Assembly: GCA_963840855.1 (NCBI GenBank) | Contig: CAWJBB010000079.1 | Span: forward strand, 141,487 to 205,486 | DNA from: an uncultured delta proteobacterium | GTDB taxonomy: Bacteria > Desulfobacterota > Binatia > UBA9968 | Length of the DNA: 64,000 bases | Reading direction: 5' to 3' | Part shown: piece by piece, positions 10,946 to 29,071 of the stretch | How positions within the stretch are numbered: position 1 is the first letter of the stretch | Layout of the letters: each line of letters opens with the position of its first letter | Program-made: the position numbers and the translations under genes | Notes under the pieces: model-generated | What the model saw: only the letters and a program-made list of their open reading frames with translations | Databases searched by the model: none | What the model was told of the DNA's origin: nothing

Positions 10946-10950
10946 GGCTA

Positions 10951-11958
10951 CTAACCCGAAATTAACAGCGTCAAAAAAAAGATGCCGGCCGCGGCCAGCA
11001 AAAAGCCATGATAAAAATCCTGGTATTCGATGACTTTTCTGAAGCCGGTGATATCGCGCTCTTTGAGAACGATTTCAGAAAAAGTCTTATCCAGCTCGAA
11101 ACCGCTGAGAGAGCGGTAAAACTTCCCTCCAGTCTTGTCCGCGATCCAGTGCAGGGTGCGCTCATCGAAACGAGTGATGATCCTTTTACCCTGGTCGTCC
11201 TCGAGGTAAACAGGCCGGCCGCTCTCGTACGCGATCGGTATCGGCGCGCCTTCCACGGAGCCTACGCCGACGGTATGGACCTTGACTCCTTGTTCTTTCA
11301 CCGCGTCAACCGCCCCATCGAGCTCCGCGCTGTTGTCCTCGCCGTCGGAAAGCAGGATAAAGACCTTCTTGTTGCGCGCCGCTGCAGGGTACACTTCGGC
11401 TTCTTTGCGAATCACGGTAATACCATTTCTGAGCCCGCGCCCGATATTGGTTCCATGGCTCACGCTGGTGTCTTCTTTCAGATAGTCGAGATAATAGAGA
11501 ATATTGTTGGCGTCTTCAGTCAGGTAGGAGATGATCACGCTGCCGCCGGCAAACGACACCAGCCCGACGCGGTCGTGCGCAAGCTTGGCGCGTGAAAAAG
11601 CGCCGATCACCTCCAACGCGCGCGCTAGCCGCGACGGTTGAATATCAGTGGCCCTCATGGAAGGAGATGTATCGAGCAAAAAGACCACGTCCAACACCCC
11701 CGGCTGGGGCACTTTTTGTTCTTGGACCAGTTGCGGATGGGCGAGGGCGAGAATGAGGGCCGCCATCACTAGATTCAAAAGCAAGAATCTAATAACGTCC
11801 TTGCGCAACGAAGAAAAACGAGAGATCCGTTTGAGCGCCAGCCCAACGCCCAGAGTCCGCCGGCTTTGGTGCTTGCCGTGGAGAAAATAGAGCCAACAGG
11901 GCAGCAAGGCGGCGAGCAAGAAGAACAGATTGAGATAGCCGGGATGTAAAAACTTCAT
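10951..11958 (-). CDS. vWA-domain membrane protein, BatB/MxaL-like (intact)
   Basis: Start MKFLHPGY, TM segments, MIDAS DTSPS, DIQPSRL, SDGE, C-terminal TM. Confidence 0.85.
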   Translation of the reverse strand: MKFLHPGYLNLFFLLAALLPCWLYFLHGKHQSRRTLGVGLALKRISRFSSLRKDVIRFLLLNLVMAALILALAHPQLVQEQKVPQPGVLDVVFLLDTSPSMRATDIQPSRLARALEVIGAFSRAKLAHDRVGLVSFAGGSVIISYLTEDANNILYYLDYLKEDTSVSHGTNIGRGLRNGITVIRKEAEVYPAAARNKKVFILLSDGEDNSAELDGAVDAVKEQGVKVHTVGVGSVEGAPIPIAYESGRPVYLEDDQGKRIITRFDERTLHWIADKTGGKFYRSLSGFELDKTFSEIVLKERDITGFRKVIEYQDFYHGFLLAAAGIFFLTLLISG

Positions 11959-12109
11959 CGGAGGCTTCGTGCCCTTCGCGTCCTTCGTGGGGCGTACTTC
12001 CCTCGCAACGAGTTCCTGTGGCAAGTTTTTACCACGAAGATCACGCAGGACTCGAAGATTAAATTAGCAAACATATCTCTTCACTGCCTTTTCCGCCGCC
12101 AAAACTCGT

Positions 12110-12727
12110 TCAGCCGCGCTTCTCAGGCGCCATTTGCTGCTGCGAGGGATCCTGGGGGCGCATCTTGTCCATGATCGATTTTACTTTTTGCTCCTGCGCC
12201 TTGCGGTCACGGTCCGGTTTCGCCAGGATGTTGCGGACCAGTTCATAATTGAACTTCAGGTCCCAGTCGTCCGGTTGCTGCGCAAGACCTCTTTGGTATT
12301 CTGACATAGCGGCCTTGAGTGCGTTGGTGGCGGTTTCCGCGTCTGGGCTTTCGATTGCCTGTCGAAACAGGACGTTTCCCATCCAAAAACTATAATCGGC
12401 GCTTTCGACCACCGCCGGCGCATCAACGGGCAGCTGCTCAAGCTTGGCCAGGGCGTCGCCGATCTTGCGCTGGCTATAGAGTAGGGCGACCTGGTTCAAG
12501 CTTGCTTGCTTGTGCTCCGCCGCAAGAATCTGAGTTTGCGAGGGAAGCATGTTCAACGGGCGCTCGACACGGGCATAGGTTTCCATAGCGCCAGCCATAT
12601 CGCCCTGGAAAACGGCCGTCTGGGCGCGATCCAATTCGAACATCACCCAGCCATACGCGATCAACAGCGCAGAGATCACGAAAACGAGAACATATCCCGC
12701 CAATTTTGCGGCATTCATTCTAGCCAT
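12110..12727 (-). CDS. TPR protein, MxaK/BatC-like
   Basis: N-terminal TM; FWMGN...YQRGLAQQPDDWDLKFNYEL TPR end motif. Confidence 0.7.
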   Translation of the reverse strand: MARMNAAKLAGYVLVFVISALLIAYGWVMFELDRAQTAVFQGDMAGAMETYARVERPLNMLPSQTQILAAEHKQASLNQVALLYSQRKIGDALAKLEQLPVDAPAVVESADYSFWMGNVLFRQAIESPDAETATNALKAAMSEYQRGLAQQPDDWDLKFNYELVRNILAKPDRDRKAQEQKVKSIMDKMRPQDPSQQQMAPEKRG

Positions 12728-12991: not shown

Positions 12992-13465
12992 TCAGCGGCT
13001 CTCCGTGGAAAATTTACGCTGCAACCAACCGGAAAACCCATCTTCTAGCACGCTGACATTGCGATACCCCTTGCCGCGCAATGCCAGGTAGGAATAGGAT
13101 TCGTCAACGCCTCCCGGTGGGCAGGAGCAATAGAGAATCACCCGGCCGGACTTGGGGATTTCCTGATAGCGCATCTGCAATTCAGCCACTGGAATCGAAC
13201 GAGCTCCCGGGAGACGCGATTTTTGAAAATCGCTGGTCGGACGAAGATCGACAAAGAAAATTTTTTCCCCTGCTTCGAGCATCCTCTTTACCCGCTCCGA
13301 CGGAATCGTTTCAATGTATTCCTCGTCGTGTCCGCCGTTAGCGAGGGCGGGAATAAGAAACAAAAGAAATACTATTGACAGATCCGCCAACTCTACAACC
13401 ACGCGCCGCATCGGGCTGCGTTGTAATACGCGATCGCCTGCCGCTTTGTGCCCGCCGGCGCTCAT
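12992..13465 (-). CDS. Exported rhodanese-like protein R1 (start uncertain)
   Basis: VDLRP-DF-SRLPGARSIP, ILYCSCP, LEDGFSGW; hydrophobic leader followed by GHDEE. Confidence 0.85.
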   Translation of the reverse strand: MSAGGHKAAGDRVLQRSPMRRVVVELADLSIVFLLFLIPALANGGHDEEYIETIPSERVKRMLEAGEKIFFVDLRPTSDFQKSRLPGARSIPVAELQMRYQEIPKSGRVILYCSCPPGGVDESYSYLALRGKGYRNVSVLEDGFSGWLQRKFSTESR

Positions 13466-15188
13466 GGTTTTAAGGCGTCGTAAATCAGCTTGCCGCCCAC
13501 GAGGGTCATGACGCTCTGAATTTTTGCGATTTCATCGTCCGGCACGTTTAGATAGTCTTTGTCGAGCACAACCATGTCGGCCCATTTGCCCGCTTCAAGT
13601 GATCCCAGAAGTTGATCGCGCAGGACATATTGCGAGGCCCAGCGCGTCGCCATCAGAAGCGCGGTGCGCCGATCTATGGCGTGGCGGGCGCCCCACACCT
13701 TGTCGTTCTCGTCTTTGCGCGTAACCAGAGTGCCGAGCCCGAAAAAGGGCTTGATTCCCAGGTCCGCGTCATCTTGCTCCCAGGTCACCCGGCCGCCGGC
13801 ATCGAGAATCCCTTGGATGGGCAAGACCCAACGGTGCGCGGCCTCCTCGCCATAGTCCCGCATCACGCGGTCGGCGCGCAGCAAGTACTTAGGCGCGCAG
13901 CTCCACATGATGTTGAGTTTCTTGGCGCGTTCGATCTGGTCGGGACGCGGGTTCATCGTGCAATGGTCGATAACATGGTTTTTCGCGCGAATTTGCTCCA
14001 GGGAAATCCCTGCTTCCGCGCTTGCCTTTTCAATGATGTCCAGCAACACATCGGTAGCCTTGTCACCCGCGCTATGCGTGCCGGCAATGCGAACGCCTGC
14101 CTTGACTGCGGCGTAGGCGGCGCGCCCGCGCACGTTGTCGATGGTCAGCCGGCAATCTTCCCGCGCTTTAACCTTGGCATCCGGCGATAGAGTCGTGCAA
14201 ACCCCGGGATAGGATGAATCCGTCGAGCCGGAAGAAATGCCGATGAGCCAGAATCGCTCCGTGCCATGACCGATGAGATTGCCGAACCGGTTCACAAAGC
14301 TTTCCGAGTAGATATTATCGCGATAGCCCGCTTCATTCGTGTAGGCAAGGCGGATCGGCATCATCCCTTTCTGGTCCATGTAATTGAAGGCGGATATCGC
14401 TTCCGATCCCAGAGACGAAGACCAGGTCGTGATCCCGGCGGCGCCCCACATCTCCAGCTCTTTGAGATAGACCGGTGCGAGATCTTCAGGCTTGGGCTTG
14501 GGAATAATTTCCTCGTAAAAGATCAGGCTCACGCCGGCGCCGATCCGACCCGTGAACTCTCCTTGATTATTTTTTGCCAGATCAAGAACCTTGGGATCGT
14601 AGCGCTTGAACAAGTATTCCAGCGCCCTGCTATTGGCCATAGCCTTGGTATCGGTGACATGCACCATCAAAGGATGACTCGGCGCCACTTTATCCAAATC
14701 GACCCTGGTCCGGTTGATAACGAAACTATCGGCAACATTGCGCGGACGAATGCGTGTGATAACCCACTCTCCGGGCTTTTTCGTTTTGACGGCCTCAGCG
14801 AGGCGCTCCAGCATTTCCTCTTCCGTGCGCCCTTCGATCTTGATCTCGAGCAGACTGGGATTCATCTGGGGCGCATGCCGGTCGAGGGCATATTCATGAA
14901 GGTGCGAATGAGTGTCGATCAAGCCGGGGATCACAGTTCTGCCTTGAAGGTTGATCCTGCGGGTGCGGGACCAGCCAGCGGGAGAACATCGGCGTCGCGT
15001 CCCACCCGCAGAATTTTTCCATCGCGCACGGCGATAGCCTCCGCGATGCTGAATTGTTCGTCTACCGTGATGATCTTGCCGTTATGCAGCACCGTTTCGG
15101 CGTAGCGGACGACCTCCGCGGGTAGCGATTGAGCCTGCGCCGGCGTCGCCAGCGCGAGCGAACTCAAAATTAAGAGAATCCATTTCAT
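13462..15188 (-). CDS. Exported amidohydrolase-3 (YtcJ-like) AH1, frameshift near 14966
   Basis: Signal peptide MKWILL...AQA, HNGKI-T, PGLIDTHSH, HSAGD, IDHC, GSLEAGKWAD, TLVGGK; joins ORFs 14931..15188 and 13462..14934. Confidence 0.88.
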
Positions 15189-15380
15189 AAAACGGTTTCT
15201 CCTCCCGAAAATTTTGTGCGTGATTGCCGTATACTATTCCCGGTTAGTCTTCGTCAACTGATCGAGCGCGGGTTATCGAACAGAACTATAAAGCAGCATC
15301 AGCCCAAAGCTGATCAACCTGAGCTTGGTCCTGCGTCGTATTCCCGCCAAGCGCTCGGCTGGAACCGCTGACGTCGGTCT

Positions 15381-17438
15381 TCAGTGCACGTGATCATCCG
15401 GCGCCGGCGCCGAAGGTTTCTCCTGGCTGAGCCGGTCAATCTCGCGCATAAGATATTCCATTTTGTCCCAACCGGGGCCGTCTCGAGGAATCCAACGCGC
15501 CCGCACATAGCCCTGGCGATCGATCATGAACTCCATATGCGGTGGTACGGGCGGATCCGGGAGCGTGCCCTGCTCGGAAAAACTTCGGCGCAACAGGGCA
15601 TAGGTATCAAAAGCTTCCCGGCTGCCGTCGGTAACCAGGGACACGAACTTGAACGTCGTGTTCAGCTGTAGGACTTCCTTTATCTCTTTGGGGATTGCCA
15701 GGACCTTCACGTTTTTACTCTGAAGCTGCCGGGACGCTCCTTCGAGCTCAGCCAAACGAGGGCGAGATTCCGGCAAAGAGAAAAGCACGAGCATGACGAT
15801 CTCATTGCCGCGGTGATCCTTGAGAGAGCGGTTTTCACCGTTCAGCGTTCGATAGACGAAGTCCGGCGCCACGAGCCAGGGGTCGGGCTCCACCAGCGCG
15901 CTCATCTGCCTCGCCCGCTCAGCGGCGGATAAAGCGCGCAGAAAATTAATCATGTCCCAGCGCTCTTCTTCATCGAGGCTCTGCGCAAATCCAGGCATTG
16001 GACCAGGGGCGTTATCGACCTTCATGCCATGACTCAGCCACCAAAACAGGTCCCCCGCTGTGTGATCCGCCGAATGTTTTGCCGTCAAGTCCGCCGGCTT
16101 CGGTTTCAACCCTTTACCGTTTGCGCCGTCGCCGTAACCGCCGACGCCATGGCAACCGGCGCACGTCTCATGATAAATGCGCGAGCCATTGGACACGGAG
16201 ATGGTATTGTAAGGAACCGAGGGCCGGAGATAGGTCGCCGGGTAGGCGTCGATGGACAATGCGTTGTGGGCGATCCAGCCGCCATAACCGAGACTCGCCA
16301 CTCCCGCGCCGAGCACCAGGTAACGATAACGGCGCCGCAAGATAAGACAACCAATTATGCCGGCGAGTCCGGCGCCAGCCCACCATTGCCCCTGCGTAAA
16401 CTGGGCGCGTATTTTCGCGCTGCTGCTGTTAAGGACATTCCAGTTCCAGCGAAACGCAAAGGGCCACTCGGGCTGGATGTGGCGCGCCGGCGGCGTGATG
16501 CTCATCAAACCGACAATCAACAGAATACCCGCTCCTATGCCCGCTTCGGTTTTTACGTTCCGCTTTAGGCGCCGCAGAAGTACTGCCAGTCGCGCCAACG
16601 AACTTTGATCTTCGAGCGCTAGGATGCGGGGCTTAAGTTTGCGCAGATTGATCGCCGCAACTGCGAGCAGCGGCACAAGCAAAGCAAGTTTAACGAGAAG
16701 CAGTTTGCCGTAAGCCGTGCCCATGAGCGGCGGCACGGCGCCGACGAGAGTCCAGGCATTGAACATTCCCGTGACCAGGACAACTGTGACACAAACCAAA
16801 CCGAGCAGAGAAAAGCGGCGCGTAGCTGCCTTAAAGGTAGCACTAGCCCAGGGATGATCAAGGCGGAGAAGCCAGGCAAGAAAAATGGCGAAAGCCGGCA
16901 ATCCGCCAAGCCAAGCGCTGGCAGCCAAAAGATGCAAAGCATAGGCGGCAAGCTGCGCGACGAGCCAGATCCCTTCGCCGGCGGCGGCGTGGCTCGAGAA
17001 GGCCAGAGCCATAACGAGAACCGCGGCGAAGATCAGAGGAAGAGCGGGCAAATCATTCGAGCGCGTTCGGCGTGCAGCGAAAATCAATCCGGCCAGAACG
17101 ACGATAAGACCGACGCGAACGAGCCAGACGATGCCATATCGAGTTCCGAGCAAAACTCCGCCGATGTTTTCCGCCCGCAATGCTTGGGTAAGCGGCACGC
17201 TGGTCACAGTGGCAATCTGCAACCAGAAACCGAGCAGACCCGTTAGAAAAACCGCGAGCAACGTCCATTGGGTGAGCGTGAGCTGGCGGCGCGTGAAGGC
17301 CGCAAATTCCGCGCTCGTCCCGGCGCCGGCAACTCGCAGAGCTGGGCGCGCGACAATGAGGTGGAATGCCAACGATCCAAGCAGGAAAGCTGCTGACGCG
17401 AGATGCGCAAACTTAATGAACGCGGAGACAGTGGTCAC
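15381..17438 (-). CDS. CopD - cytochrome c - redoxin-like fusion membrane protein
   Basis: CopD TM domain (SSHAAA, HLLAASAWLGG, YGKLLLVK), heme motif CAGCH with PGPMPGF, C-terminal APDF...FMIDRQGYVRARW domain, DDHVH tail. Confidence 0.85.
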   Translation of the reverse strand: MTTVSAFIKFAHLASAAFLLGSLAFHLIVARPALRVAGAGTSAEFAAFTRRQLTLTQWTLLAVFLTGLLGFWLQIATVTSVPLTQALRAENIGGVLLGTRYGIVWLVRVGLIVVLAGLIFAARRTRSNDLPALPLIFAAVLVMALAFSSHAAAGEGIWLVAQLAAYALHLLAASAWLGGLPAFAIFLAWLLRLDHPWASATFKAATRRFSLLGLVCVTVVLVTGMFNAWTLVGAVPPLMGTAYGKLLLVKLALLVPLLAVAAINLRKLKPRILALEDQSSLARLAVLLRRLKRNVKTEAGIGAGILLIVGLMSITPPARHIQPEWPFAFRWNWNVLNSSSAKIRAQFTQGQWWAGAGLAGIIGCLILRRRYRYLVLGAGVASLGYGGWIAHNALSIDAYPATYLRPSVPYNTISVSNGSRIYHETCAGCHGVGGYGDGANGKGLKPKPADLTAKHSADHTAGDLFWWLSHGMKVDNAPGPMPGFAQSLDEEERWDMINFLRALSAAERARQMSALVEPDPWLVAPDFVYRTLNGENRSLKDHRGNEIVMLVLFSLPESRPRLAELEGASRQLQSKNVKVLAIPKEIKEVLQLNTTFKFVSLVTDGSREAFDTYALLRRSFSEQGTLPDPPVPPHMEFMIDRQGYVRARWIPRDGPGWDKMEYLMREIDRLSQEKPSAPAPDDHVH

Positions 17439-17455
17439 GGGATTGGGACAAATGC

Positions 17456-17481
17456 AAGGGGCGGGTTTGAAACCCGCCCTT
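17456..17481. repeat. REP-like palindrome GGGGCGGGTTT(C/G)AAACCCGCCC (also 34651..34679, 34885..34910, 37529..37554)
   Basis: Four intergenic copies of the same hairpin. Confidence 0.8.
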
Positions 17482-17492
17482 ACAGCTTCGCG

Positions 17493-17945
17493 TCAGTTGG
17501 TCTTGGCGCCGGTCTCCACAGGAAATTTGCGTTGCAACCAGCCTTTGAATCCTTCCGGCATGATGGCGATGTTGCGGTAGCCATGATCGTCTTTGAGCAC
17601 CTGATAGGCGTCTTGAATGAGCAGGTTTTGAGGGCAGTCGCAGTACAGAATCACCCGCCCCGCCTTGGGAATTTGCCGCAGGTTTTTCTCCAAGTCGCTT
17701 ATGGGGATCGAGCGCGCGCCGGGCAAGCGCCGCGCTTTGAACTCGGGGGCCGGGCGGAGGTCGATTAACACGAGAGTTTCCTTGTTGTCGAGGAAATACT
17801 TCACCCGTTCCGGCGTGACGATATCGACGATATCTTCGGCATCGTGGGCCGCGTCAATGATCCCGGGGGAAAATGCTAAAAACAAAAATAGTGCCGGAAC
17901 GGTCGCCCAACAGCGTGTAGCCTGGTCACGAATTCGCTGAATCAT
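17493..17945 (-). CDS. Exported rhodanese-like protein R2
   Basis: Leader ...IIDA|AHDAED, IDLRP, RLPGARSIP, ILYCDCP, EGFKGW; start chosen from an AGAGG RBS. Confidence 0.85.
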   Translation of the reverse strand: MIQRIRDQATRCWATVPALFLFLAFSPGIIDAAHDAEDIVDIVTPERVKYFLDNKETLVLIDLRPAPEFKARRLPGARSIPISDLEKNLRQIPKAGRVILYCDCPQNLLIQDAYQVLKDDHGYRNIAIMPEGFKGWLQRKFPVETGAKTN

Positions 17946-18166
17946 GTTTCGCATCCTCTTTTCCATAGTTCGTAGCCTGGATGGAGTGAAACGTAATCCA
18001 GGAAGTCTTTCCCTACAGTTCTGGATCTCATACGCAAGACTCACCAATCGAACCGTAGGAGGTCGCGACCGTCCCCTACCTGCAAGCACGACCTTCGCAA
18101 GTCGATCGAGCGCACTCTTCGACGATGCTCAGGGCGATCGGCATATCAGTCTTCTTCACCAGCCTG

Positions 18167-19927
18167 CTAAAAATTCGGCGCCCGATGCAGGATCTTGCCG
18201 CCCACCACGGTGAGCAGGGACTTGATCGTCCTGATTTCCCGCTCCGGCACCGTGAAGTAATCCCTGTCCAAAACCAGCAAGTCGCCGAGTTTACCGCGTT
18301 CCAACGAGCCGATTTTGTCTGCTCGCAGGACGTATTCCGCCGCCCAGTTGGTGGACATCTTCAGGGCAATCACGCGATCGACTCGCTCTTTGCCATTGTA
18401 CACTTTGCCCTCGACCTCACGATTGACCAGAACATCCAAGTAGTGAAAGACTGTTCCGACCTTGAAGATTTCGTTGTCATCAACTTCCATCACTGTCTTG
18501 ACGTTGGCATCAAGCAAACTTTTTACCGGCGCCACCCAGCTCAGATACTTTTCACCATAGTCCCTGAGAACCCGCGGACTCGCCTCGATGTATTTTGGCG
18601 CGCAGCTCATCATGATGTTGAGTTTTTGCAGCCTGGGGATTTGGTCCGGACGTGGATTCAATGTGCAGTGATCGATCGCATGTCCCTTGGCCCTGATTTG
18701 ATCGAGGGTATAACCCGCTCTGGCGCTCCCTTTCTCAATCGCGTCCAGGGTTAAATCCAGGGCTTTATCTCCCGCAGTGTGGGTGCCGGACCATCTCAGG
18801 CCCGAAGCGACGGCATTTTCAATGAAGGCCTCGAAGCCAACGTTATGAATCTCCCGATCCTTGATTTCTTTCGGGATATCCGGCGGCTCGATGGTCGTGA
18901 GTATTCCTGGATATGAAGCATCGACGCCTCTCATGCTGGCGCCGACGAACCAGAGGTAATCGCTCCCATAGCCGCTTACGCCGAACATTTCGGGAACCAC
19001 CTGCGCGGGGGTGCCCGTGCCCGGTGTATAGCCATACCTGATGCCGATCTCGCCCCTTTGATCCAAGAGTTGATAGGCGGCAAGAATCCTGAGCGAGCGG
19101 ATATTGCTCGACCAGGTGGTCACCCCGTAGCTGGCCCAACGAAGGTTCTCGGCTTTGTAAATTTCCGCCAATTTTTCAACGCTGGGAATCAAGTGATCCG
19201 ACAGCACCATTCGGTTGATGGTGTTCGAAGAGAAGCCGTCGTCCCGCATTAGATTGGGTTCCATCGGGCCGTGCCAACCGGCGCGGATGAGCTCCTGAGC
19301 TTTGCCGTTGGTAATCGAAGAAGTCCTGGTGCGTATGTAAACCGGATTGTTGGGCGCCACCTTGTCCAATTCAGCTCGGGTAACCACCTGGCTGCGCATT
19401 GCGGCTTGCACCGCGTCCATGGGTTTGCCGTCTTTTCCGATCGCTTGCCTGGGCAGATCGAGGGCGATCCACTCTCCCGGTTTGCGCTTGGCGACTTCCT
19501 GACGGATCGCCTCGAGGGTTTTCTGTTTAACGGAGTCCCAGGTCTCGTTCTGCTCTGCACGAATTCGCATCCGGGGCGAAGCGTCGCCCAGGGAATCCAT
19601 CGCATAGTCGAAAAGATGGGAGTGTGTGTCGATGATCCCTGGCACCACTGTCCGCCCCTTCACGTCGAATACTTGCGTCTGCGGTCCTCTCAGGGAAAGA
19701 ATCTGGCTATTGTTGCCGAGCGCGAGTATCTTGCCATCTCTGACGGCCAGAGCTTCGACGACGGTTCCCAGAACCGCCGAGTTGCTCTTGTCATCCATCG
19801 TGACGATCTTGCCGTTGTGAAAGATCAGTTCCGGATATCGGACAAGGTCCGGCGCGAGGGTTTGCGCGGCGACGGGAGTGGCCCAAAGGGCAAGAGCAAC
19901 AAGTGACCAAAGAAAACTGAGCGTCAT
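18167..19927 (-). CDS. Exported amidohydrolase-3 AH2
   Basis: GGAGG RBS, signal ...PVAA|QT, DTHSH, HTAGD, IDHC, SCAPKY, GSLERGK. Confidence 0.92.
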   Translation of the reverse strand: MTLSFLWSLVALALWATPVAAQTLAPDLVRYPELIFHNGKIVTMDDKSNSAVLGTVVEALAVRDGKILALGNNSQILSLRGPQTQVFDVKGRTVVPGIIDTHSHLFDYAMDSLGDASPRMRIRAEQNETWDSVKQKTLEAIRQEVAKRKPGEWIALDLPRQAIGKDGKPMDAVQAAMRSQVVTRAELDKVAPNNPVYIRTRTSSITNGKAQELIRAGWHGPMEPNLMRDDGFSSNTINRMVLSDHLIPSVEKLAEIYKAENLRWASYGVTTWSSNIRSLRILAAYQLLDQRGEIGIRYGYTPGTGTPAQVVPEMFGVSGYGSDYLWFVGASMRGVDASYPGILTTIEPPDIPKEIKDREIHNVGFEAFIENAVASGLRWSGTHTAGDKALDLTLDAIEKGSARAGYTLDQIRAKGHAIDHCTLNPRPDQIPRLQKLNIMMSCAPKYIEASPRVLRDYGEKYLSWVAPVKSLLDANVKTVMEVDDNEIFKVGTVFHYLDVLVNREVEGKVYNGKERVDRVIALKMSTNWAAEYVLRADKIGSLERGKLGDLLVLDRDYFTVPEREIRTIKSLLTVVGGKILHRAPNF

Positions 19928-19980
19928 AATAATCCTCCGTAAGGTTTGGCTTTTCTTACTTGAAAAAAATTCAACGTTTG

Positions 19981-19995
19981 GCCAGCCATGTACCA
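19981..19995 (-). promoter_or_regulatory. Possible sigma54 -24/-12 element upstream of AH2
   Basis: TGGTACATGGCTGGC (GG-N10-GC) ~55 nt before the start; motif match only. Confidence 0.25.
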
Positions 19996-20136
19996 CACAA
20001 CAGCGAGTTTGAAAAGTCCGGCGCTGAGCACAGTCTAGAGTCTCGGGTCTGGAGACTCGGTTTGACTCGAAAAGAAATTCGAAACGCGGAAGCGTGTGTT
20101 CGTTCGAACACGAGCACGAGAGATGAGCACGCGTCG

Positions 20137-20508
20137 TTAGTTTTTTGTTTCTCTAACAGTGAACGGAAAACTCTGCTCGACCACGTGCCCGTCCACAGAT
20201 AAAACGCGGAATTTCACGGTATATCTCCCTGCCTGAAGTTGCTTGACGCCGATGGCAAGCTGCTTTGGATCCTCATTGGACACCAACGCGTTGTCGAGGT
20301 CTACACGCTTGCCACCGGAATCAAGAACCGCGATGGACGAATAGCGTGGCTCCAAGCGCTCGTTAAACCAGATCTGAATTTTCGCCGGCGAAGCGAACAG
20401 CGTAGCGCGGCCCGGCGGCACGGATTTCACGAGATAAGCGTGTGCGGAAGCGAGCGCCGGAAACAAAAGAAACAACAAGAGCAAAACCTCAGCACGTCGC
20501 GCTTTCAT
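20137..20508 (-). CDS. copC: Periplasmic copper-binding protein CopC
   Basis: Signal ASA|HAYLVKSVP (His1), FNERLE, RVLSVDGH; no Met-rich Cu(I) loop. Confidence 0.92.
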   Translation of the reverse strand: MKARRAEVLLLLFLLFPALASAHAYLVKSVPPGRATLFASPAKIQIWFNERLEPRYSSIAVLDSGGKRVDLDNALVSNEDPKQLAIGVKQLQAGRYTVKFRVLSVDGHVVEQSFPFTVRETKN

Positions 20509-20552
20509 TTTTTGACGAAGCAACACGGCGAATTAAACAAAAGATCGGAGAT

Positions 20553-20591
20553 AAAGGGATAGAAGATGTCGCACCTCTATCCCTTTTTTTT
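20553..20591. terminator. Intrinsic terminator-like hairpin between AH3 and copC
   Basis: AAAGGGATAGA...TCTATCCCTTTTTTTT. Confidence 0.6.
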
Positions 20592-20611
20592 GTCCACTGC
20601 CTGCGGACCAC

Positions 20612-22373
20612 TCAGAAATTATCCGCCTGGTAAACGATCTTCCCGCCAACCATGGTGAGGAGAGGTTTTATCTTTCTGATCTCCCGTTCAGGCACAGTGA
20701 AGTAATCGCTACTGAGAACCAGGAGATCGGCATACTTGCCGCGCTCCAGGGAGCCCTAGAACGTTCTCCCTGAAGACATACTCGGCCGCCCAGCTCGTGG
20801 CCGTTTTCAGCGCCAGCACGCGGTCGACGCGTTCCTTGGCGGCATAGACCTTGCCTTCGACTTCCCGATTGACCATGACGTCGATGTAGTGAAACACGGT
20901 GCCGACCTTGAAGATGTCGCGATCATCGATCTCCATGACGGTTTTAACCCCTGCGTCGAGCAATGATTTCACTGGGGCAATCCACGTGAGGTATTGCTCG
21001 CCGTAATCACGCAAGACTTCCGGCGAGTCCTCAACGTATTTCGGCGCGCAGCTCATCATAATATTGAGCTTTTGCAGCCGCGGGATTTGGTCAGGGCGGG
21101 GATTCAAGGCGCAGTGATCGAGCGCATGACCCTTGGCTTTGATCTGCTCGGCGGTCAGCCCGGCCCTGGCGCTCCCCTTTTCGATGGCGTCGAGCATGAT
21201 ATCCGCCGCCTTATCGCCCGCTGTATGCGTGCCGGCAATCCGAAGGCCGGCGGCGACCGCATTCTCAATAAATTCCGGAAGACCCGCGTTGAAAACCTCT
21301 CGATCTTTAATTTCCTTGGGTACATTGGTGATGGTCGTCAGAAGTCCGGGGTAGGACTGGTCGGTGCCGCGCATGCTCGCTCCGACGAACCACACGTAGT
21401 CGGTTCCATAACCGCTTACGCCATACATCTCCGGAATCAATTGAATCGGCGTGCCCAGACTCGGAGTATAGGCAAATCTTATCCCTATCTCGCCCTTTCT
21501 ATCGAGGAGCTGGTAGCCGGCCAACGCGCGCATCGAGCGCATGGAGCTGGACCAGGTAGTAACACCGTAGCTCGCCCATCGGAGATTTTCCTCTTTGTAA
21601 AGTTGCGCTAACTGCTCCAAAGTCGGGATCAGGAAGTCAGACCCTATAATGCGATTCAGCGTGTTGGAAGAAAAGCCGTCTTCGCGCATGAGATCAGGTT
21701 CCATGGGGCCGGCCCAGATGTTTTTCACGATGTCCATGGCTTTGCTGTTCAGAATCGAAGTGGTTCTTACTTTAAGGTAAACGGGGTTGTTCGGCGCCAG
21801 CTCATCCAACTCTTTTCGATTGACGATAACTCCCCTGCGCGAAGCGACGATGCCATCCATGGGTTTACCGTCCTGTCCGATGCCCTCGCGCGGCAAGTCC
21901 AAGGCGATCCAGTCGCCGGGTTTTTTCTTGGCCGCCTCTACCTTGACGACGTCGAGAACCTTTTTCTTGATGCTCGCCCAAGTCTCTCCCGACTGAGCCC
22001 GGACGCGTGTTCGCACCGTATTTTGCTCCTGCGCGTCCAGGGCGTAATCAAACAAGTGCGAATGCGTGTCGATAATTCCCGGCACAACCGTGCGGCCCTT
22101 CAGATCGAGGATTTTCGTCTGCGGTCCTTTTAACCCAAGGATCTGTTGATCGCCGCCGGCGGCGATGATTTTTCCGTCTCGAATCGCCACCGCCTGCGCC
22201 ATGGTTCCGGGGTTTGACGAGGGTGTCTTGTCGTCCATGGTTGCGACCTTGCCGTTGTGCAGGATGGTGTCGGGATAATTTACTAGCTCTGGTGGAACAC
22301 TTTGAGCCAGTACCGGGCGGGTGACGAGAGCCAAACTCAAGAGAAGAAATAAAACCCTAATAGAGCGTTTCAT
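20612..22373 (-). CDS. Exported amidohydrolase-3 AH3, C-terminal frameshift near 20755
   Basis: Signal ...PVLA|QS, DTHSH, HTAGD, LDHC, SCAPKY; shifted frame continues SLERGKYAD...VGGKIVYQADNF*. Confidence 0.9.
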
Positions 22374-22491
22374 AAAAACCTCCTTGTGGTTTCGCTTTCT
22401 TATTTATTATTGGCTTTTTGCTCGAAGCAGATTCTCCTGTTAAGCGTATAGCATAGAGCCTGTAGCCCTGAAAAGCCCAAATGCTAACTGC

Positions 22492-22923
22492 TTACTTCTT
22501 ACCCGTTTCAACCGGAAACTTTCGTTTAACCCATTCCTTAAAAGTATCCGCCATGACCGAAATATTGCGATACTCATGGTCGTCGCGCAGTGGTAGATAC
22601 GCTTCCTGAACCAGCTCGTCTTGCTCGCAGTCGCAGTAGAGCACCACCCGGCCCGCCTTGGGAATCTCCCTTAAACGTTTTTCAAGCTCGTTCATGGGGA
22701 GCGAACGGGCGCCCGGGATGCGTGCCTGCTTAAAGTCTTTGGCGGGCCGGAGGTCGAAAAGAATGAGCGGTTCGCGCGCAGCGAGATAATACTTGACCCG
22801 CTCCATCGTCACTATCGAGACAGGTTCCTCCGAGCCGTGGCCGGCCACAGCGATCCTCGTGGGGAACCCCACGACCATGGCGAAAAGAAAGACGAAAACT
22901 CGATGGCCAGAGCACAGGCGCAT
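22492..22923 (-). CDS. Exported rhodanese-like protein R3
   Basis: Leader ...IAVA|GHGSEE, FDLRP, RIPGARS, VLYCDCE. Confidence 0.87.
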   Translation of the reverse strand: MRLCSGHRVFVFLFAMVVGFPTRIAVAGHGSEEPVSIVTMERVKYYLAAREPLILFDLRPAKDFKQARIPGARSLPMNELEKRLREIPKAGRVVLYCDCEQDELVQEAYLPLRDDHEYRNISVMADTFKEWVKRKFPVETGKK

Positions 22924-22975
22924 CTTAGGATTGTCTCCGTAAATAGCAGAGCGACAATATCCGCCAGCGGCTTTA

Positions 22976-24817
22976 TTACTCGATAACCCCCGGCGCTTCC
23001 TTGCCGCCAAACTCCGCCACCTGGGGACCGCGGGTCCTCCCTCTCAACGCGGAGTTTTCGTGGATAATCTTGCCACTTACCATAGTGAGCACTGGAGCGA
23101 CAGTTCCGATCTCGCCTTCGGGCACCGTCAGGTAATCGCGGTTGAGGACCAGCAAGTCAGCGAACTTTCCCGGCTCCAGCGAACCCAAAACATTTTCCTT
23201 CAACACATACTCTGAAGCCCACACGGTTCCCATCTTTAGCGCGAGCACGCGGTCGATCTTCTCCCGCGCCGCATAAACCTTACCGTTCACCTCACGCGTC
23301 ACTAAGAGTTCCAGGTAGTGGAATGGACCCTTTGTCGGCGTGAAATGAATATCTGTTTCCAGTACTGTCTTCACTCCGGCTTCGATAAGGCTCTTGGCGG
23401 GAGCGACCCAGTTGAGATATTTCTCGCCATAATCGCGCAGCACTTCCGGGCTGGCGTTTTCGATATACTTGGGACTGCAGCTCACGAGAATACCGAGCTT
23501 CTTTAATCTCGGCATTTGATCCGGTCTCGGATTCATCGTGCAGTGATCGACAGAATGACGCCGGGCCTGGATTTGCTCAGGCGACATGCCGGCTTTCTTG
23601 CTCCCCTCTTCGATGACATCCATCACCTGGTCCAAGGTGGCGTCCCCCGCGACATGCGTGTTGCTAAAACGCAGCCCTCGGGCGACGATTTCCTCTAAGA
23701 CCTTGCGCCTGTAGTCCCCGCCATCCAAACGAGTCATCTCCCTCGATTTGATTTCCGCCGGCGCGTCAGCGCTGGATTTTAGCTGTGGGTACGAGCCATC
23801 GGCGCTGACCAGGCTGATGCCGTTGGGCCAGAGATACTCAGATCCCTGCCCCTCTACCAGTTCCATGTAGCCGCGCACCATGGCCGGTCCTTGTGAAGTT
23901 CCGGTAATGAGACTTCCCAAACCATAGGCGAAGCGCACGACCATTTCGCCCTTTTGATCGAGAAGCCGATAGGCGCGAATCGTATTCAACGCTGAGGTAG
24001 AGGAAGACCAGGTGGTCACGCCATAGGCCGCCAATTCCTCCTGTTCTTTCTTGTAGAGATCGGCCAACAGAGGAAGCTTGCCATCGAGGATGATGTCGGT
24101 TTGGAGCGAGCGCCGGATGCTGGCGCTCCATACGATGCCATCCTCGCTGATCTCTTCATCCAATGCGCCATAGTGGCGCTTGAATGCCTCAAGGGCGCGG
24201 CTGCTGAACAATCCACGATTGCCGGCCTGGATGAAAATCGCATGATCAGGCGAGATTTTATCCAGCTCTTCTTTGTTGAACATCTTGAGGTCCGTCATCG
24301 CCACTTTGATGTCCACTTGTTTGCCATCGCGCATGACGCGATTCGGTAGCCTCACCCATATCCACTCGCCCGGTTGGGCTTTCTTTACCTCCGCCTGAAC
24401 GGTTTCCAGCGTCGCCTTTCTCAGCTCTGCCCACTCCCGCCCCTTGATTGCCGGTTTTCTCAGCTCAGGGAGGTTCCTCCCCCAGTGGTCCATGGTGTAT
24501 TCCATCGCGTGGTAGTGGGTGTCGATGATTCCAGGGACCACGGTCCTACCGCGCAAATCGATGATCTCGGTCTTGGGGCCTTTCAGCGCGAGAATTCTAT
24601 TGTTGGCACCGAGAGCCAAAATCCTGCCATCTCGGATGGCGAGCGCCTGGACGATCGTTCCGGGATTGGTGGATGTTGTCTTGTCGTCCACCGTGACGAT
24701 CTTACCATTGTGCAGAATCGCTTCCGGATAGCGGATCAATTCCGGCGGCAGGTTTTGCGCGAATGCAGGACTCAAGGAAAGTAGACCAACTAAAAAGGAA
24801 AAAAATAGCCTTCTCAT
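22976..24817 (-). CDS. Exported amidohydrolase-3 AH4
   Basis: Signal ...PAFA|QN, DTHYH, HVAGD, VDHC, SCSPKY, GSLEPGKFAD. Confidence 0.92.
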   Translation of the reverse strand: MRRLFFSFLVGLLSLSPAFAQNLPPELIRYPEAILHNGKIVTVDDKTTSTNPGTIVQALAIRDGRILALGANNRILALKGPKTEIIDLRGRTVVPGIIDTHYHAMEYTMDHWGRNLPELRKPAIKGREWAELRKATLETVQAEVKKAQPGEWIWVRLPNRVMRDGKQVDIKVAMTDLKMFNKEELDKISPDHAIFIQAGNRGLFSSRALEAFKRHYGALDEEISEDGIVWSASIRRSLQTDIILDGKLPLLADLYKKEQEELAAYGVTTWSSSTSALNTIRAYRLLDQKGEMVVRFAYGLGSLITGTSQGPAMVRGYMELVEGQGSEYLWPNGISLVSADGSYPQLKSSADAPAEIKSREMTRLDGGDYRRKVLEEIVARGLRFSNTHVAGDATLDQVMDVIEEGSKKAGMSPEQIQARRHSVDHCTMNPRPDQMPRLKKLGILVSCSPKYIENASPEVLRDYGEKYLNWVAPAKSLIEAGVKTVLETDIHFTPTKGPFHYLELLVTREVNGKVYAAREKIDRVLALKMGTVWASEYVLKENVLGSLEPGKFADLLVLNRDYLTVPEGEIGTVAPVLTMVSGKIIHENSALRGRTRGPQVAEFGGKEAPGVIE

Positions 24818-24839
24818 CTGTATCTCCCTTCTTGATTCT

Positions 24840-25277
24840 CTAGCGGGTTACTTTTTTGGCAATCGTCTCCATCGGATAACCGCGGTTTACCCAGCCCTGG
24901 AATCCATCCGCCATTATGGCAGCATTGCGGTAACCATAGTCTTTGAGTAACAAGTAAGCGTCGTCGATAATCTGATTTTGCGGGCAGTCGCAATAGAGCA
25001 CCACGCGACCCGATCGCGGAATTTCCGTGTAGCGCTTAGCCAGTTCCTTCAGCGGAACGGAACGCGCACCGGGGAGCCGCGCTTTCTGAAAGTCAGCGCC
25101 GGCACGAAGATCGACGATGATGATCTTCTCGCGCGCATCGAGAAAAGCCTTCACCTGCTCAACCGTGACCGTGACCACATCTTCTTCACTGCCATGCCCG
25201 GCCCATGCCACCGCGGGCGAAACCATCACGAGTGCGAGTATAAGAGCGGCGAGCTTTCTATCATTTGTCACATGCAT
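24840..25277 (-). CDS. Exported rhodanese-like protein R4
   Basis: Leader ...AWA|GHGSEED, RLPGARSVP, VLYCDCP, DGFQGW. Confidence 0.88.
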   Translation of the reverse strand: MHVTNDRKLAALILALVMVSPAVAWAGHGSEEDVVTVTVEQVKAFLDAREKIIIVDLRAGADFQKARLPGARSVPLKELAKRYTEIPRSGRVVLYCDCPQNQIIDDAYLLLKDYGYRNAAIMADGFQGWVNRGYPMETIAKKVTR

Positions 25278-25291
25278 AGTTCGTGTCTGCG

Positions 25292-27089
25292 CTATTTGCT
25301 CGGCGTTAGTGCAAGACCCACCGCCGGTAATTTCTCCGCCTTGGCGAATTGCGGATTGGTGTACACCAGCTTACCCGCGACCGCAGTCAGCATTACGTTG
25401 ATCTTCGAGAGATCTTCGTCCGGAGTATTCAGGTAATCGCGGTCTATAATGACGAAATCCGCCCACTTCCCACGCTCGAGGGAGCCCAGAACCTTTTCAC
25501 GCAGAACGTATTCGGCGGCCCAACGGGTGAACATCTTTAGAGCCGTAGACTTATCGACGGCTTGCTTTGCTCCCCAGGTTCTTCCCTCGCTGTCCTTGCG
25601 GGTAACCGCATACTTGATGTGAGCAAAGGCGCCGCCTTCCTTTCTGTGCACCCTGCGATCGTCCATTTCCATAACGACTTTCCCGCCGGCTTGTAGAATG
25701 TTCTGGATGGGCGCGTTCATCTCATGCGCGTATTTTTCGCCGTAGTCCCGGGATATGTCGGCAGCATCCTCTATATATCGGGGCGCGCAACTCCAGATGA
25801 TGTCGAGTTTTTTTCCCCGTTCGATTTGGTCGGGCCGCGGGCTCATGCCGCAGTGGTCAATGTTATGCTTCTTGGCCCGGATCTCATCGGCGCTTATTCC
25901 CGCCTCCGCGCTCGCCTTCTCGATCAGGTCGAGATATTTATCGACCGCGCCATCGCCATAGACATGGGTTCCTGAGATGCGCTGCCCTGCTTGAACCGCG
26001 GCGCGCATGATTTTGTATTGCGCATCCGCCTCGCATATCTCCCGCGACTTGATTTCGTCACGCGCATTAACCGTGGTGCAGTGCCGCGGGTAACTGCTGT
26101 CGAGAGCGGACAGCGATACGCCAATGGTCCACAAGTAGTTCGTGCCGTGACCGACATTGTTTCCCAGCCGCTTGTAGAACTCTGCCGGCATGGGCAAAAC
26201 CTGCGGCGCCCATTCGATGCGAGTACGCAAAGCGGATCGGCATCTCACCGGCACGGTCCAGCACGGCAAAGCCGTCAAAAACCTTGGCCGTTGGTAGCGA
26301 CGATGACCAAGTGGTAACGCCAAGCGCAGACCAGGCCTGTAACTCCTTCTTATAAATGGCTGCGAGTGTTTACGGCTTTTGCACGAGAATCTCGCCGATT
26401 AACGTGCGCATGGCGCCGGAGCCGATCGGCCCCCGTGGAGTCCCTTTCGCGTCCGAGGGTATCTCTTCTGGAAGCTCGCCGAAGTAGTCAGTGAACATCT
26501 TAAAGATGAGACTGTTCGCCCTTCTATCCGTGCCGCGGAGCTGGACGACAATCGGATTCTTAGGCGCAAGCTCGTCCATTTCTTTCAGCATCATCTTTTT
26601 GCCGAACTCCTCAGCGACGCTAGACGGCTGGAGTTGCACGTGGACGATCTTGCCCGCGGGAGTTTTCGCAAGCATCTCCTTCAAGCGAGCGATCGCTTCG
26701 TCGACGGATTTAACCCGAACCTCGGTCTGCCGGTACTGCGCCAACTCCGGCTCGAGCTTTTCAAGATCGTTCGCCCAATTTGCCGGTGCGTAATCGAACA
26801 GGTGGGAATGTGTGTCGATAAACCCAGGTAGTACTGATTTACCCTTCAGGTCCAGTTGCAGGGTTTTAGGGCCGGCTAGCGCGAGGATTTCGCTGTTGCT
26901 GCCGACGGCCATGATTTTGCCGTCGCGCACGGCAAGGGCCTGCGACACGGAAAAACGCTCGTCCACCGTAACTATTTTCCCATTGTGATACACAGCATCC
27001 GCGAAAATCACCATCCCTTTACCGGTTTGCGCCGCGGCTTGACTCGTGAGAAGACAGTACGACATTAAGAAGCTAATCAGCCATCTCAT
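25292..27089 (-). pseudogene. Exported amidohydrolase-3 AH5, broken by an in-frame TAA (26370..26372) and a frameshift near 26185 (may be sequencing error)
   Basis: The three ORF pieces reconstruct one paralog: signal, DTHSH, GVTTWSS, HVYGD, IDHC, SCAPRY. Confidence 0.8.
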
Positions 27090-27184: not shown

Positions 27185-28301
27185 TCACTGCTCCGTAGCC
27201 CGCGGCGCTGGCAATCCCCACACTTCAACGGCGATGCGCTCGGCAATCTTGTTTCCTTTTAGCAAGCAGGCGACATTGCAAAACGAAACGCTGGCGCTCT
27301 TTGTTAGCTGATGAGTTAAATTTCCCTCAACCAGGAACGAACCTCTACCGGGTTCCGTCGATTCGACGATTTGCTGGGCCTCGCCGAGAAGCTAAAAACT
27401 CCAGCCAGAGAAGCGCTGCATGAGGATTCTTGGCGCCCGCATAGATCGCCTGGGGATCGTGCAAGGTGATCGGGAGAATCTCCGGTACTACCATCTTGAT
27501 GGGCAGATTCGGATCCTTCTTCAACATGCGGCTCATCGGATGGATATACATCCCGCAGTTCATGGAGAGCTTGCCCTCGGCCAGCAAACCGAGGTTGCGG
27601 GTATTGCCCCGGCCAAACACTGCCTGGTTATCTTTCAATCCCCGGGCAAAGTCGAAAAGTCTTTCCTCCCCCCAGCGCGGGATGAGCCATGTCAGCATAT
27701 TGGGATTGGCATCGACGCTGAACCTGCCTTTCCATTGCGAGTCGAGGCAGCTCGCCCAACCCTTGGGGGCTTTGTCCGCTGCTATCAGGCTTGAGTTGTA
27801 AGTGATGATGCCGGTGTTGTTCGACGGCCACACAATCATGCCCGTGTCATCGATCATCTCGATGGGAATTTTGATCTGACCATCCCGCGCCATCGCCTTG
27901 AGGTCATACTTTTTGACAAGCCCCCGCTCAGGATATTCGTTTGGGAAAGAGCCGCTAAATCCTAAAACATCGACGACCGCCTCGCCTGCGACAAGCTCAT
28001 CGAGCGCTTGTTTGGGATTTGGCCTCGAGCCCATTTTGCTGGCGCCCCACCCGGGCTGCACAAAGGGATACCTTTTGCCGAACGCCTTGAGAAGCTCCGG
28101 TATCGTTGCTTTGTCATACTCGGGCCGCAGCGCGGGATGCAAAAGCAGTTTCCCTTCCTTCTTCGCTCCCTCGATCATCTGCGCGCTTGACACATAAATC
28201 GTTGCCGGCCTTGGCTGGGCCGTGGATTGGCTCGCGGAAAACATTGCCGCGAGAGCAAACGGGATAGAAAAACAAACATGGAAATATTGCGCTAGTTTCA
28301 T
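27185..28301 (-). CDS. ABC extracellular solute-binding protein (Fe/polyamine-type fold), frameshift near 27385
   Basis: GAKKEGKL, YNSSLI-DKAPKGW, AKNPHAALLWLEFLAS; shifted frame continues to TGA at 27185. Confidence 0.78.
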
Positions 28302-28600: not shown

Positions 28601-29071
28601 CTACCGCCGGCCCGCCTCGATGGGAAATTTACGCTTTTCCCAGCCGTAAAACCCTTCCAGCATGAAAGCGATATTTCTGTACCGGTTGTCCTCAAAAAGC
28701 TGAAACACGGAGTCCGGAATCTCGTCTTGCGGCGTTGCCGCGTATACAATGACCCTTCCCGACTTGGGAATCTCGCCCAACCGCTTGTCCAACTCCGCCA
28801 TCGGAATCGAGCGGGAGCCGGGAAGTCTTTTGTCTTGGAACTCTTTTGCCGGCCGGATATCGATGAGCAAAAATTTTTCGCCGGCGTCGAGCAGCAGCTT
28901 GAGGCGGTCGGCCGCGATGGTAGTAACGTCCCTGCCCTCATGCCCGGCTTCCGCCAGCGCCGGCGCTAAAGCAAGAACCAAGACCGTTAGAAAAATAATT
29001 ACATGGCCCGCCCTGACGATTCTTATCGCCGATTGCTTTTCCCTCTTGATGGCTCGTTTACGGATTGCCAT
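28601..29071 (-). CDS. Exported rhodanese-like protein R5, Cys-free
   Basis: Leader ...AEA|GHEG, IDIRP, RLPGSRSIP; active loop VYAATP instead of LYCxCP. Confidence 0.85.
   Translation of the reverse strand: MAIRKRAIKREKQSAIRIVRAGHVIIFLTVLVLALAPALAEAGHEGRDVTTIAADRLKLLLDAGEKFLLIDIRPAKEFQDKRLPGSRSIPMAELDKRLGEIPKSGRVIVYAATPQDEIPDSVFQLFEDNRYRNIAFMLEGFYGWEKRKFPIEAGRR

Follow-up and report, generated by a model that had tools for sequence, protein, structure and literature searches.

Introduction

Amidohydrolases of the YtcJ-like type belong to the Pfam family Amidohydro_3 (PF07969), which a recent study of bile salt hydrolases credits with 110,952 UniProtKB sequences and with fewer than ten characterised enzyme types (bioRxiv 10.64898/2026.04.05.716592). 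Characterised members named in that preprint include BwBSH1, a metal-dependent bile salt hydrolase, the cytosine deaminase CodA, AtzC and an aminoacylase, and its canonical site, with a ligand set backed there by mutagenesis, has an alpha metal held by two His and an Asp, a beta metal held by two His, and a carboxylated Lys that bridges the two. Here I examine a 64,000-nucleotide stretch from an uncultured delta proteobacterium (assembly GCA_963840855.1, contig CAWJBB010000079.1, positions 141,487 to 205,486 of the forward strand; the whole stretch is called the window below) that encodes six amidohydrolases of this family, AH1-AH6, in a single array. Five of them, AH1-AH5, keep the core ligand set, namely the HxH motif past strand 1, the His residues of strands 5 and 6 and the Asp past strand 8, and have lost the strand-4 Lys.

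Some relatives are already known to do without this residue. CodA and AtzC have no carboxylated Lys and bind a single metal with HxH, the His of strand 5 and the Asp of strand 8, and deaminases carry an H-x-x-E proton-shuttle motif, whereas in D-aminoacylase a Cys from strand 2 replaces the Lys as bridging ligand. AH1-AH5 differ from both. Their strand-5 motif, H-T-A-G-D in AH2, has no Glu at +3, and their strand 2 reads G-V/I-T-T-W-S-S without a Cys; sequence matches to CodA and AtzC, which are cytoplasmic, are weak and partial, and with D-aminoacylase the N-terminal part alone aligns. The carboxylated Lys has also been replaced in the type-I dihydroorotase of Aquifex aeolicus, which belongs to another family of the same superfamily; there Asp153 takes its place, one Zn occupies the alpha site and the beta site holds water (PMC3880350). 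Cys181 of that enzyme stands alone on a mobile loop, from which it blocks the site, unlike the covarying two-strand Cys pair that is discussed below.

Family membership and metal-site motifs

All six AH proteins match PF07969 (YtcJ-like, COG1574/cd01300). AH1-AH5, which lie on the minus strand within positions 13462-27089 of the window, do so with E-values of 2.4e-43 (AH1), 9.3e-40 (AH2), 2.7e-27 (AH3), 5.7e-41 (AH4), and 5.8e-25 and 1.2e-08 for the two pieces of AH5, and the scores (96.8-149.8 bits for AH1-AH4, 89.1 and 35.3 bits for the AH5 pieces) all exceed the gathering cut-off of 29.7. No NCBIfam equivalog model came near its cut-off with the proteins of the array. An AlphaFold2 model of AH2 (pLDDT 94.3, pTM 0.92) has the YtcJ-like fold, a barrel with a composite beta domain: the best solved folds found by Foldseek were 3icj and 3igh, both YtcJ-like and from Pyrococcus (E 1e-27, 1.2e-27 for 3icj; TM 0.61/0.75; identity 21-23%), and the remaining neighbours were ordinary amidohydrolases with no characterised enzyme close. 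Matches in the ESM Atlas were unnamed amidohydrolase clusters only, mainly from Acidobacteriota, and 12 longer relatives (665-933 aa) contained no extra Pfam domain, rhodanese or other. The literature, judged by titles and the openings of abstracts, yielded no description of the clade or of its gene cluster. AH1-AH5, exported by the Sec route, fall in a large and uncharacterised YtcJ-like clade of PF07969.

A preliminary description of the array, aligned by eye, held that AH1-AH5 have a rebuilt metal site in which HxH and HxxGD are kept, the Lys region reads G-[IAV]-S-x4-D-x-S-Y-P, EH becomes DHC, GSD becomes E-x-D and a new SC(A/S)P(K/R)Y motif appears. The altered motifs are confirmed in the five translations. 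HxH is embedded in DTHSH, except in AH4, which has DTHYH; the Lys regions are GISSGSTDSSYP, GASMRGVDASYP, GASMRGTDQSYP, GISLVSADGSYP and GVSLSALDSSYP; TH-x-x-GD and DHC are both present in 5/5; the second Cys motif occurs as SCAPKY, SCSPKY or SCAPRY; and the strand-8 motifs are WEQDD, MEVDD, MEIDD, LETDI and MEMDD. The alignment by eye was also right, since a profile of 133 family members aligned to 3icj, the closest solved YtcJ-like structure (E 1.7e-44), pairs the same motifs. In that alignment the family's G-x-S-x4-D lies opposite G-V-K-x3-D, with a one-residue insertion in the family, while T-H-x-x-G-D pairs with H-A-I-G-D, D-H-C with E-H-A, S-C-A-P-K with S-A-Q-P-H, and E-x-D with S-T-D. 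It follows from this alignment that a Ser stands at the position of the carboxylated Lys (canonically G-x-K-x3-D-G) in AH1-AH5 and that the strand-8 Asp is retained with a new Glu two residues ahead. With the YtcJ-like hydrolases (3icj, 3igh, BwBSH1) the window's family has in common the Pfam family, the fold, HxH, H-x-x-G-D, the strand-6 His, the strand-8 Asp, a conserved strand-3 Arg and a strand-7 Ser; it is set apart from them by the low identity, by Ser, Gly or Thr in place of a Lys that in those enzymes (G-V-K-x3-D-G in 3icj) is carboxylated and bridges two Zn, by the insertion, by D-H for E-H and by E-x-D for G/S-x-D.

When 1.84 billion cluster representatives were searched with AH2, 15350 matched at E<=0.001, 3481 of them at E<=1e-10 and 243 at E<=1e-30. 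From the 150 matches listed, 112 representatives of 540-720 aa were aligned together with AH2, AH4 and AH6 (n=115), and 38 were dropped as fragments or longer proteins. The His residues are close to invariant (AH2 numbering: H102 in 114, H104 in 112, H383 and H420 in all 115), and the acidic residues less so, with Asp at D419 in 94 and at D336 in 85, Glu at E481 in 81 and Asp at D483 in 69; D483 is present in AH1-AH5 and invariant in a close clade of 33 sequences. Lys at column 331 was found in 0/115 aligned sequences, the window's family having Ser, Gly or Thr there, and distant relatives fetched from genomes carry the canonical signature (HxH, K, H, E-H, G-x-D). The Lys-less signature is common to a large family and is therefore a trait of the clade, not an adaptation of the paralogs in the window. 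What stands of the rebuilt site is that the Lys is gone and that the signature differs from that of Lys-bearing YtcJ-like enzymes, but the change is family-wide. The SC and DHC motifs are present as claimed, but a strand-6 His-Cys is in itself no novelty, as it also occurs in 14/63 Lys-bearing relatives.

Metal content of the lysine-less site

AH1-AH5 are most likely Zn-type hydrolases with one firmly bound metal, a carboxylate-bridged two-metal site being the main rival, and their chemistry is most likely ordinary hydrolysis. As divalent-metal enzymes they would activate water at the HxH/His/Asp site with one tightly bound metal in the alpha position, like Lys-less members of the superfamily such as the Aquifex dihydroorotase, and a conserved carboxylate, either D336 or E481 (the latter specific to the family), may contribute to holding or tuning the site. 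The account I favour joins this to the Cys residues of strands 6 and 7: AH1-AH5 would be Sec-exported, Lys-less, Zn-type hydrolases, most likely with a single alpha-site metal, and C421 and C442 would form a stabilising disulfide. I put its chance of being correct as a whole at a little below even.

The same enzymes, with the same disulfide, could instead be ordinary two-metal amidases in which a protein carboxylate bridges two Zn-type ions. Candidates for the bridge are D336, shifted by the one-residue insertion past strand 4 in the manner of the type-I dihydroorotase Asp, and E481 on strand 8. H383 and H420, the His residues of the beta site, are universal in the aligned set, and D336 and E481 are each found in most of it. 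Mononuclear members of the superfamily also conserve the strand-5 and strand-6 His, which counts against a bridged pair of metals and makes this conservation not decisive. The type-I dihydroorotase offers a precedent, with an Asp near the carboxy-Lys position and a beta site that is fully formed (PMC3880350).

Further evidence on the bridge comes from 156 unique AH open reading frames (ORFs) of at least 450 aa, out of 201 matches in the fetched loci. Glu481 is nearly confined to sequences without the Lys (Glu in 53/93 against 2/63 where the Lys is present), in a set that was fetched with patterns including D-H-C and aligned with a model derived from this clade, so that these counts, like the neighbour counts given below, are biased towards it. 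The remaining observations are unfavourable to a carboxylate bridge: 11 of the 93 Lys-less sequences have Gln at 481, and D336 is also present in Lys-bearing enzymes (K-x3-D-G) and hence is no new residue. Furthermore, the link between Lys and Glu fails on independent contrasts, with the Glu481 state differing in 0/6 independent Lys contrasts on the tree, which makes the exchange a single clade-level event. Compensation of the lost Lys by Glu481, striking in the raw two-by-two table, was set aside on the same grounds and is kept as a possibility only. Taken together, I consider a binuclear site doubtful, though deserving of serious attention.

The cysteine pair

The preliminary description had noted that the Cys of DHC and of SC(A/S)P(K/R)Y appear to be the only ones in AH2-AH4, and the counts agree (two in AH2, two in AH4, and two in the true frame of AH3, whose third lies in an out-of-frame tail). 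AH1 and AH5 have a second pair in the loop past strand 4; it corresponds to columns 343/361 of the alignment, where Cys co-occur in 72/115 each, and is absent from AH2-AH4. The first pair is strongly coupled. Among the 115 aligned sequences C421 is Cys in 46 and C442 in 45, with both present in 45, neither in 69 and a single one in 1. A FastTree phylogeny of 268 sequences was built with the trait columns removed, and contrasts were counted on supported branches: of 11 independent contrasts in C442, about 10 show C421 moving with it and 0 show C421 moving against it (sign test p about 0.002), and the minimum number of changes is at least 15 for C442 and at least 25 for C421. These contrasts show repeated joint gain and loss of the pair while the His set stays unmoved.

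In the 70 sequences without the pair, position 442 is A, V, I, L, M, F, W or P in 63 and never H, D, E, C, K, N or Q, and the usual residues at position 421 are G, L, N, S, M and A. The 14 Lys-bearing relatives with a strand-6 His-Cys lack the second Cys, and their ligand set is already complete. After removal of the first 30 residues, the 45 pair-bearing proteins contain 2 (9 proteins), 3 (1), 4 (32) or 6 (3) Cys, an even number in 44/45, and signal-peptide-like N-termini are found in 39/45 of them as well as in 60/70 of the other members. Because the two positions covary, 442 is otherwise hydrophobic, the mature Cys counts are even and the N-termini are signal-peptide-like, I infer, on strong sequence evidence, that C421 and C442 behave like a disulfide of exported proteins and not like a new pair of metal ligands. 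Such a bond, between C421 just past the strand-6 His and C442 at the end of strand 7, would tie the two strands together behind the active-site His and may be an optional stabiliser of a periplasmic enzyme.

The preliminary description took these residues differently, suggesting a different metal set, possibly with copper in view of copCD, or non-hydrolytic chemistry, either of which may explain a need for chaperones. Developed further, this reading has the His set and the two Cys bind copper or another redox metal for non-hydrolytic or sulfur-related chemistry, with CopC/CopD, rhodanese-like and MoxR/VWA proteins encoded nearby loading the metal. That the Cys belong to a different metal set finds no support in a pair that comes and goes over constant His ligands, in a position 442 that is never of ligand type, or in the even Cys counts, and the strand-6 His-Cys of canonical Lys-bearing enzymes is a further point against it. 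Sec export would, on the other hand, have the metal acquired in the periplasm, which suits copper. Overall, this earlier interpretation holds in part: the E-x-D site without Lys exists but is family-wide, and a disulfide is the best reading of the two Cys. For copper or non-hydrolytic chemistry the support is contextual only, and includes the neighbouring genes.

Gene neighbourhood

Five proteins of the array (Rhd1, 2, 4, 5 and 6) match Pfam Rhodanese (PF00581) at 40.5-52.3 bits against a cut-off of 22.2, and no NCBIfam model matches any of the five at its cut-off. The active-site loop is L-Y-C-x-C in Rhd1, 2, 4 and 5 and A-A-T in Rhd6. Across 25 aligned partner proteins of this kind a His just past the signal peptide is invariant (A-G-H-x-E-E, 25/25), which favours the copper reading, and the CxC loop is present in 22; three, including Rhd6, are without both Cys yet keep the His. 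With Gly-His at the mature N-terminus, these proteins would resemble small peptides that bind Cu(II). The array also encodes a fusion of CopD, cytochrome c and a thioredoxin-like fold (Pfam CopD 2.7e-21, Cytochrom_C 5.8e-12, AhpC-TSA at 23.5 bits under a 26-bit cut-off; NCBIfam copper_CopD at 158.6 bits under a 195-bit cut-off), which also precedes an AH of the DxD type, the type of AH6, on related loci L088 and L090.

Neighbours were compared across 151 related loci (79 genomic and 72 metagenomic) and the window, a set in which L086 and L087 overlap and a few rows are duplicates. An exported rhodanese-like gene lies next downstream of 15/47 pair-bearing AH ORFs with 700 bp or more of downstream sequence (4/5 in the window, 11/42 elsewhere), of 3/3 DxD-type AHs, and of 0/104 other AHs. 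The rhodanese-like partner does not track the Cys pair, because the Cys-free DxD-type AHs have it too. These numbers bear on a further possibility, in which the pair is a regulatory, redox-active disulfide that switches the metal site and whose state is set, in the subclade linked to rhodanese-like genes, by the exported CxC partner. A pair that adjoins a ligand His and is tightly coupled, the contrast between 15/47 and 0/104, and the CxC loop of most partners are all as such a switch would have them, but no partner is found beside 31/42 pair-bearing ORFs outside the window, the Cys-free paralogs of the AH6 type have one in every case, and no Cys is present in the thioredoxin-fold domain of the CopD fusion, for which reason that domain was also rejected as a candidate reductant of the pair. 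A complex prediction with mature AH2 and mature Rhd2, each with its own alignment, scored 0.00 and is no evidence either way. I hold a redox switch to be improbable.

The gene order itself recurs. L090 repeats that of the window (CopD-cytochrome c-AhpC/TSA, DxD-type AH, Rhd, SBP_bac_6, pair-bearing AH, Rhd, 205-aa protein, VWA, MoxR, DUF58), L088 has the first part of it, L083, L097 and L099 have AH-Rhd(-Rhd)-CopC, and in L086 a cupredoxin-like gene lies between three pair-bearing AHs that are followed by MoxR-DUF58-VWA. An AH together with a CxC rhodanese-like protein, CopC, CopD-cytochrome c and MoxR/VWA is a conserved cluster of one subclade, and copper genes (CopC, CopD-cytochrome c) and MoxR/DUF58/VWA accompany the enzymes of this subclade on other contigs as well. 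Elsewhere, pair-bearing AHs adjoin TonB-type outer-membrane proteins, M16 peptidases, an amidase, or an alpha/beta hydrolase with ornithine cyclodeaminase; several of the 16 related loci that were scanned with Pfam have neighbours of this kind, ordinary for catabolism or uptake. Both the Cys pair and the Lys-less site are widespread without the copper/rhodanese cluster.

Arguments for a copper or other redox metal bound by the His set and the two Cys are that CopC and CopD-cytochrome c lie inside the array, that they recur with the subclade in L083, L088, L090, L097 and L099, and that L086 has its cupredoxin-like gene. They are countered by the several pair-bearing AHs of the 16 Pfam-scanned loci that have no copper genes within the stretch examined, and by the behaviour of the Cys residues described above, and I give this reading a small chance of being right. 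A broader proposal takes the cluster (CopD-cytochrome c, a DxD-type AH, a rhodanese-like gene, a solute-binding protein, modules of Lys-less AH and rhodanese-like protein, CopC and MoxR/DUF58/VWA) for a periplasmic system linked to copper and not yet described. Its Lys-less AHs would carry copper, or would free the metal for CopC/CopD by cleaving a small molecule that bears copper or sulfur, such as a copper carrier of thioamide or isonitrile type, and the exported rhodanese-like proteins, through their invariant N-terminal His and CxC loop, would be metal or sulfur acceptors. I regard this as very unlikely.

Several points nevertheless weigh against Lys-less Zn-type hydrolases with one alpha-site metal and a stabilising disulfide, the account preferred here. 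D483, an alpha-site ligand in that account, is Asp in just 69/115 of the wider family; the exchange of Lys for Glu481 is without support from independent contrasts (0/6); and the D-H-C patterns bias the locus-derived counts. CopC and CopD-cytochrome c lie within the array and recur in related loci, and the AH proteins fold in the periplasm, the compartment in which Cu and Zn are the strongest competitors. Neighbouring parallel strands are seldom joined by disulfides, and C421 adjoins a ligand His. Finally, Cys181 of the Aquifex dihydroorotase, which also lies beside a site His, ligates Zn in one crystal form (PMC3880350).

The sixth paralog

AH6, which lies beyond the coordinates covered by the preliminary description, belongs to a large and highly conserved family of its own, and the change to its site is more radical than that in AH1-AH5. 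All alpha-site ligands are altered, with an invariant D-S-D-G-D for HxH and Gly for the strand-8 Asp, while the strand-5 His, the D-H and the Glu are kept. At least 120 relatives share at least 65% identity with AH6, and 79/120 have no Cys. The type is also found at L088:1530-3359, at L090:1562-3424, and on L154 and L156, and one gammaproteobacterial metagenome-assembled genome (MAG) encodes six paralogs of a more distant kind (Y-N/S-D-G-D). No orthologue of the AH6 type was detected in any of 300 other genomes sampled from the window's phylum at E<=1e-100, nor in any of 401 genomes of another phylum at E<=1e-150, a search in which the top three candidates per genome were scored, so that the empty result proves nothing. 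By analogy with E. coli NagA, which uses only the beta site, AH6 may use the beta site only.

Organisation of the array

The single long minus-strand array spans positions 12992-30937 of the window (Table 1), in a 7.1-Mb MAG with a completeness of 94% and a contamination of 8%. In the direction of transcription it runs AH6, Rhd6, solute-binding protein, AH5, Rhd5, AH4, Rhd4, AH3, CopC, AH2, Rhd2, the CopD-cytochrome c-thioredoxin-fold fusion, AH1, Rhd1, followed by the 205-aa protein, VWA, MoxR and DUF58. The CopC-like assignment is based on phmmer matches to CopC-bearing loci, the L097 counterpart of the protein being Pfam CopC at 1.5e-22, and counterparts of the SBP_bac_6 protein occupy the equivalent place in L088, L090, L082 and L084.

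Table 1. Coordinates (window numbering) of the array, its amidohydrolase site residues and downstream genes.
Feature	Positions	Strand	Description	Basis
205-aa protein, VWA protein, MoxR AAA+ ATPase, DUF58	8738..12727	-	downstream of the array	
Rhd1	12992..13465	-	exported rhodanese-like; C-S-C loop; His directly past signal peptide	Pfam Rhodanese 8.5e-14, alignment
AH1	13462..15188	-	PF07969 amidohydrolase without Lys; four Cys (two pairs)	Pfam, translation
AH1, N-terminal 75 aa	15188-14964	-	includes signal peptide; different frame	1-nt frameshift near 14965
CopD fusion	15381..17438	-	CopD membrane domain, cytochrome c (CxxCH) and Cys-less thioredoxin fold (AhpC/TSA-like)	Pfam
Rhd2	17493..18089	-	exported rhodanese-like; C-D-C loop	Pfam, alignment
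AH2	18167..19927	-	intact, 586 aa from Met at 19927; signal peptide; only two Cys; protein modelled	
AH2 E481-V-D483	18479..18487	-	strand-8 Asp; family-specific Glu two residues ahead	
AH2 S441-C442	18602..18607	-	strand-7 end and second Cys of pair	
AH2 D419-H420-C421	18665..18673	-	strand-6 His and first Cys of pair	
AH2 H383-T-A-G-D387	18767..18781	-	strand-5 His motif	
AH2 S331...D336	18920..18937	-	S331, carboxylated-Lys position; D336, conserved Asp of K-x3-D-G	
AH2 H102-S-H104	19616..19624	-	strand-1 HxH	
CopC-like protein	20137..20526	-	periplasmic copper-binding; D-G-H motif; first residue past predicted signal peptide is His	
AH3	20615..22373	-	two Cys in true frame; last 46 aa out of frame through 1-nt frameshift near 20755	
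Rhd4	22492..23010	-	exported rhodanese-like; C-D-C loop	Pfam, alignment
AH4	22976..24817	-	intact, 613 aa; two Cys	
Rhd5	24840..25277	-	exported rhodanese-like; C-D-C loop	Pfam, alignment
AH5	25292..27089	-	two Cys pairs; in-frame TAA (about 26370) and frameshift near 26187	
SBP_bac_6 protein	27345..28301	-	periplasmic solute-binding protein	Pfam 8.8e-06
Rhd6	28601..29071	-	rhodanese-like; A-A-T instead of CxC; N-terminal His retained	Pfam, alignment
AH6	29102..30937	-	sixth paralog; D-x-D for HxH, Gly for strand-8 Asp; no Cys	

AH2, whose length is close to that of its relatives (585-587 aa), and AH4 are intact, while AH1, AH3 and AH5 are interrupted in the assembly. Contigs from related strains have one extra nucleotide at 14965/14966 (one contig in each of 2/4 public metagenome runs) and one nucleotide fewer at 26187 (4/4 runs). 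Because related contigs differ there, the AH1 and AH5 frameshifts are peculiarities of the present assembly or strain; none of those contigs covers the AH3 site. A search of public sequencing runs returned run shares of 0.24 or less, and no habitat is inferred from it.

The region downstream of the array contains a direct repeat of about 4.45 kb (window 1-4452 versus 6494-10945, 99.3-100% identity), which covers VWA, a 356-aa protein, DUF58 and most of MoxR and extends leftwards beyond the window; a recent duplication or an assembly artefact could explain it. On the other side of the array, three ORFs without a Pfam match (31521-34119) adjoin five paralogous TPR proteins of about 210-230 aa on alternating strands (34980-39132). 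Further along, TctA and a 2-hydroxyacid dehydrogenase occur in tandem twice (53577-56142 and 56355-58503), the second TctA copy being without its first ~146 residues.

Implications

Few members of PF07969, a very large family, have been characterised, and AH1-AH5 mark out within it an exported clade of considerable size (243 representatives at E<=1e-30) for which the textbook carboxy-lysine bridge is out of reach. This clade raises the questions of metal stoichiometry, of the identity of the metal taken up in the periplasm and of the substrates. The Cys pair, ligand-like by position and disulfide-like by evolution, is a clean example of how the two can diverge. Finally, CxC rhodanese-like proteins and copper-handling genes accompany these enzymes repeatedly, which gives a concrete and testable lead to a periplasmic function, and the gene cluster around the Lys-less amidohydrolases deserves experiment.

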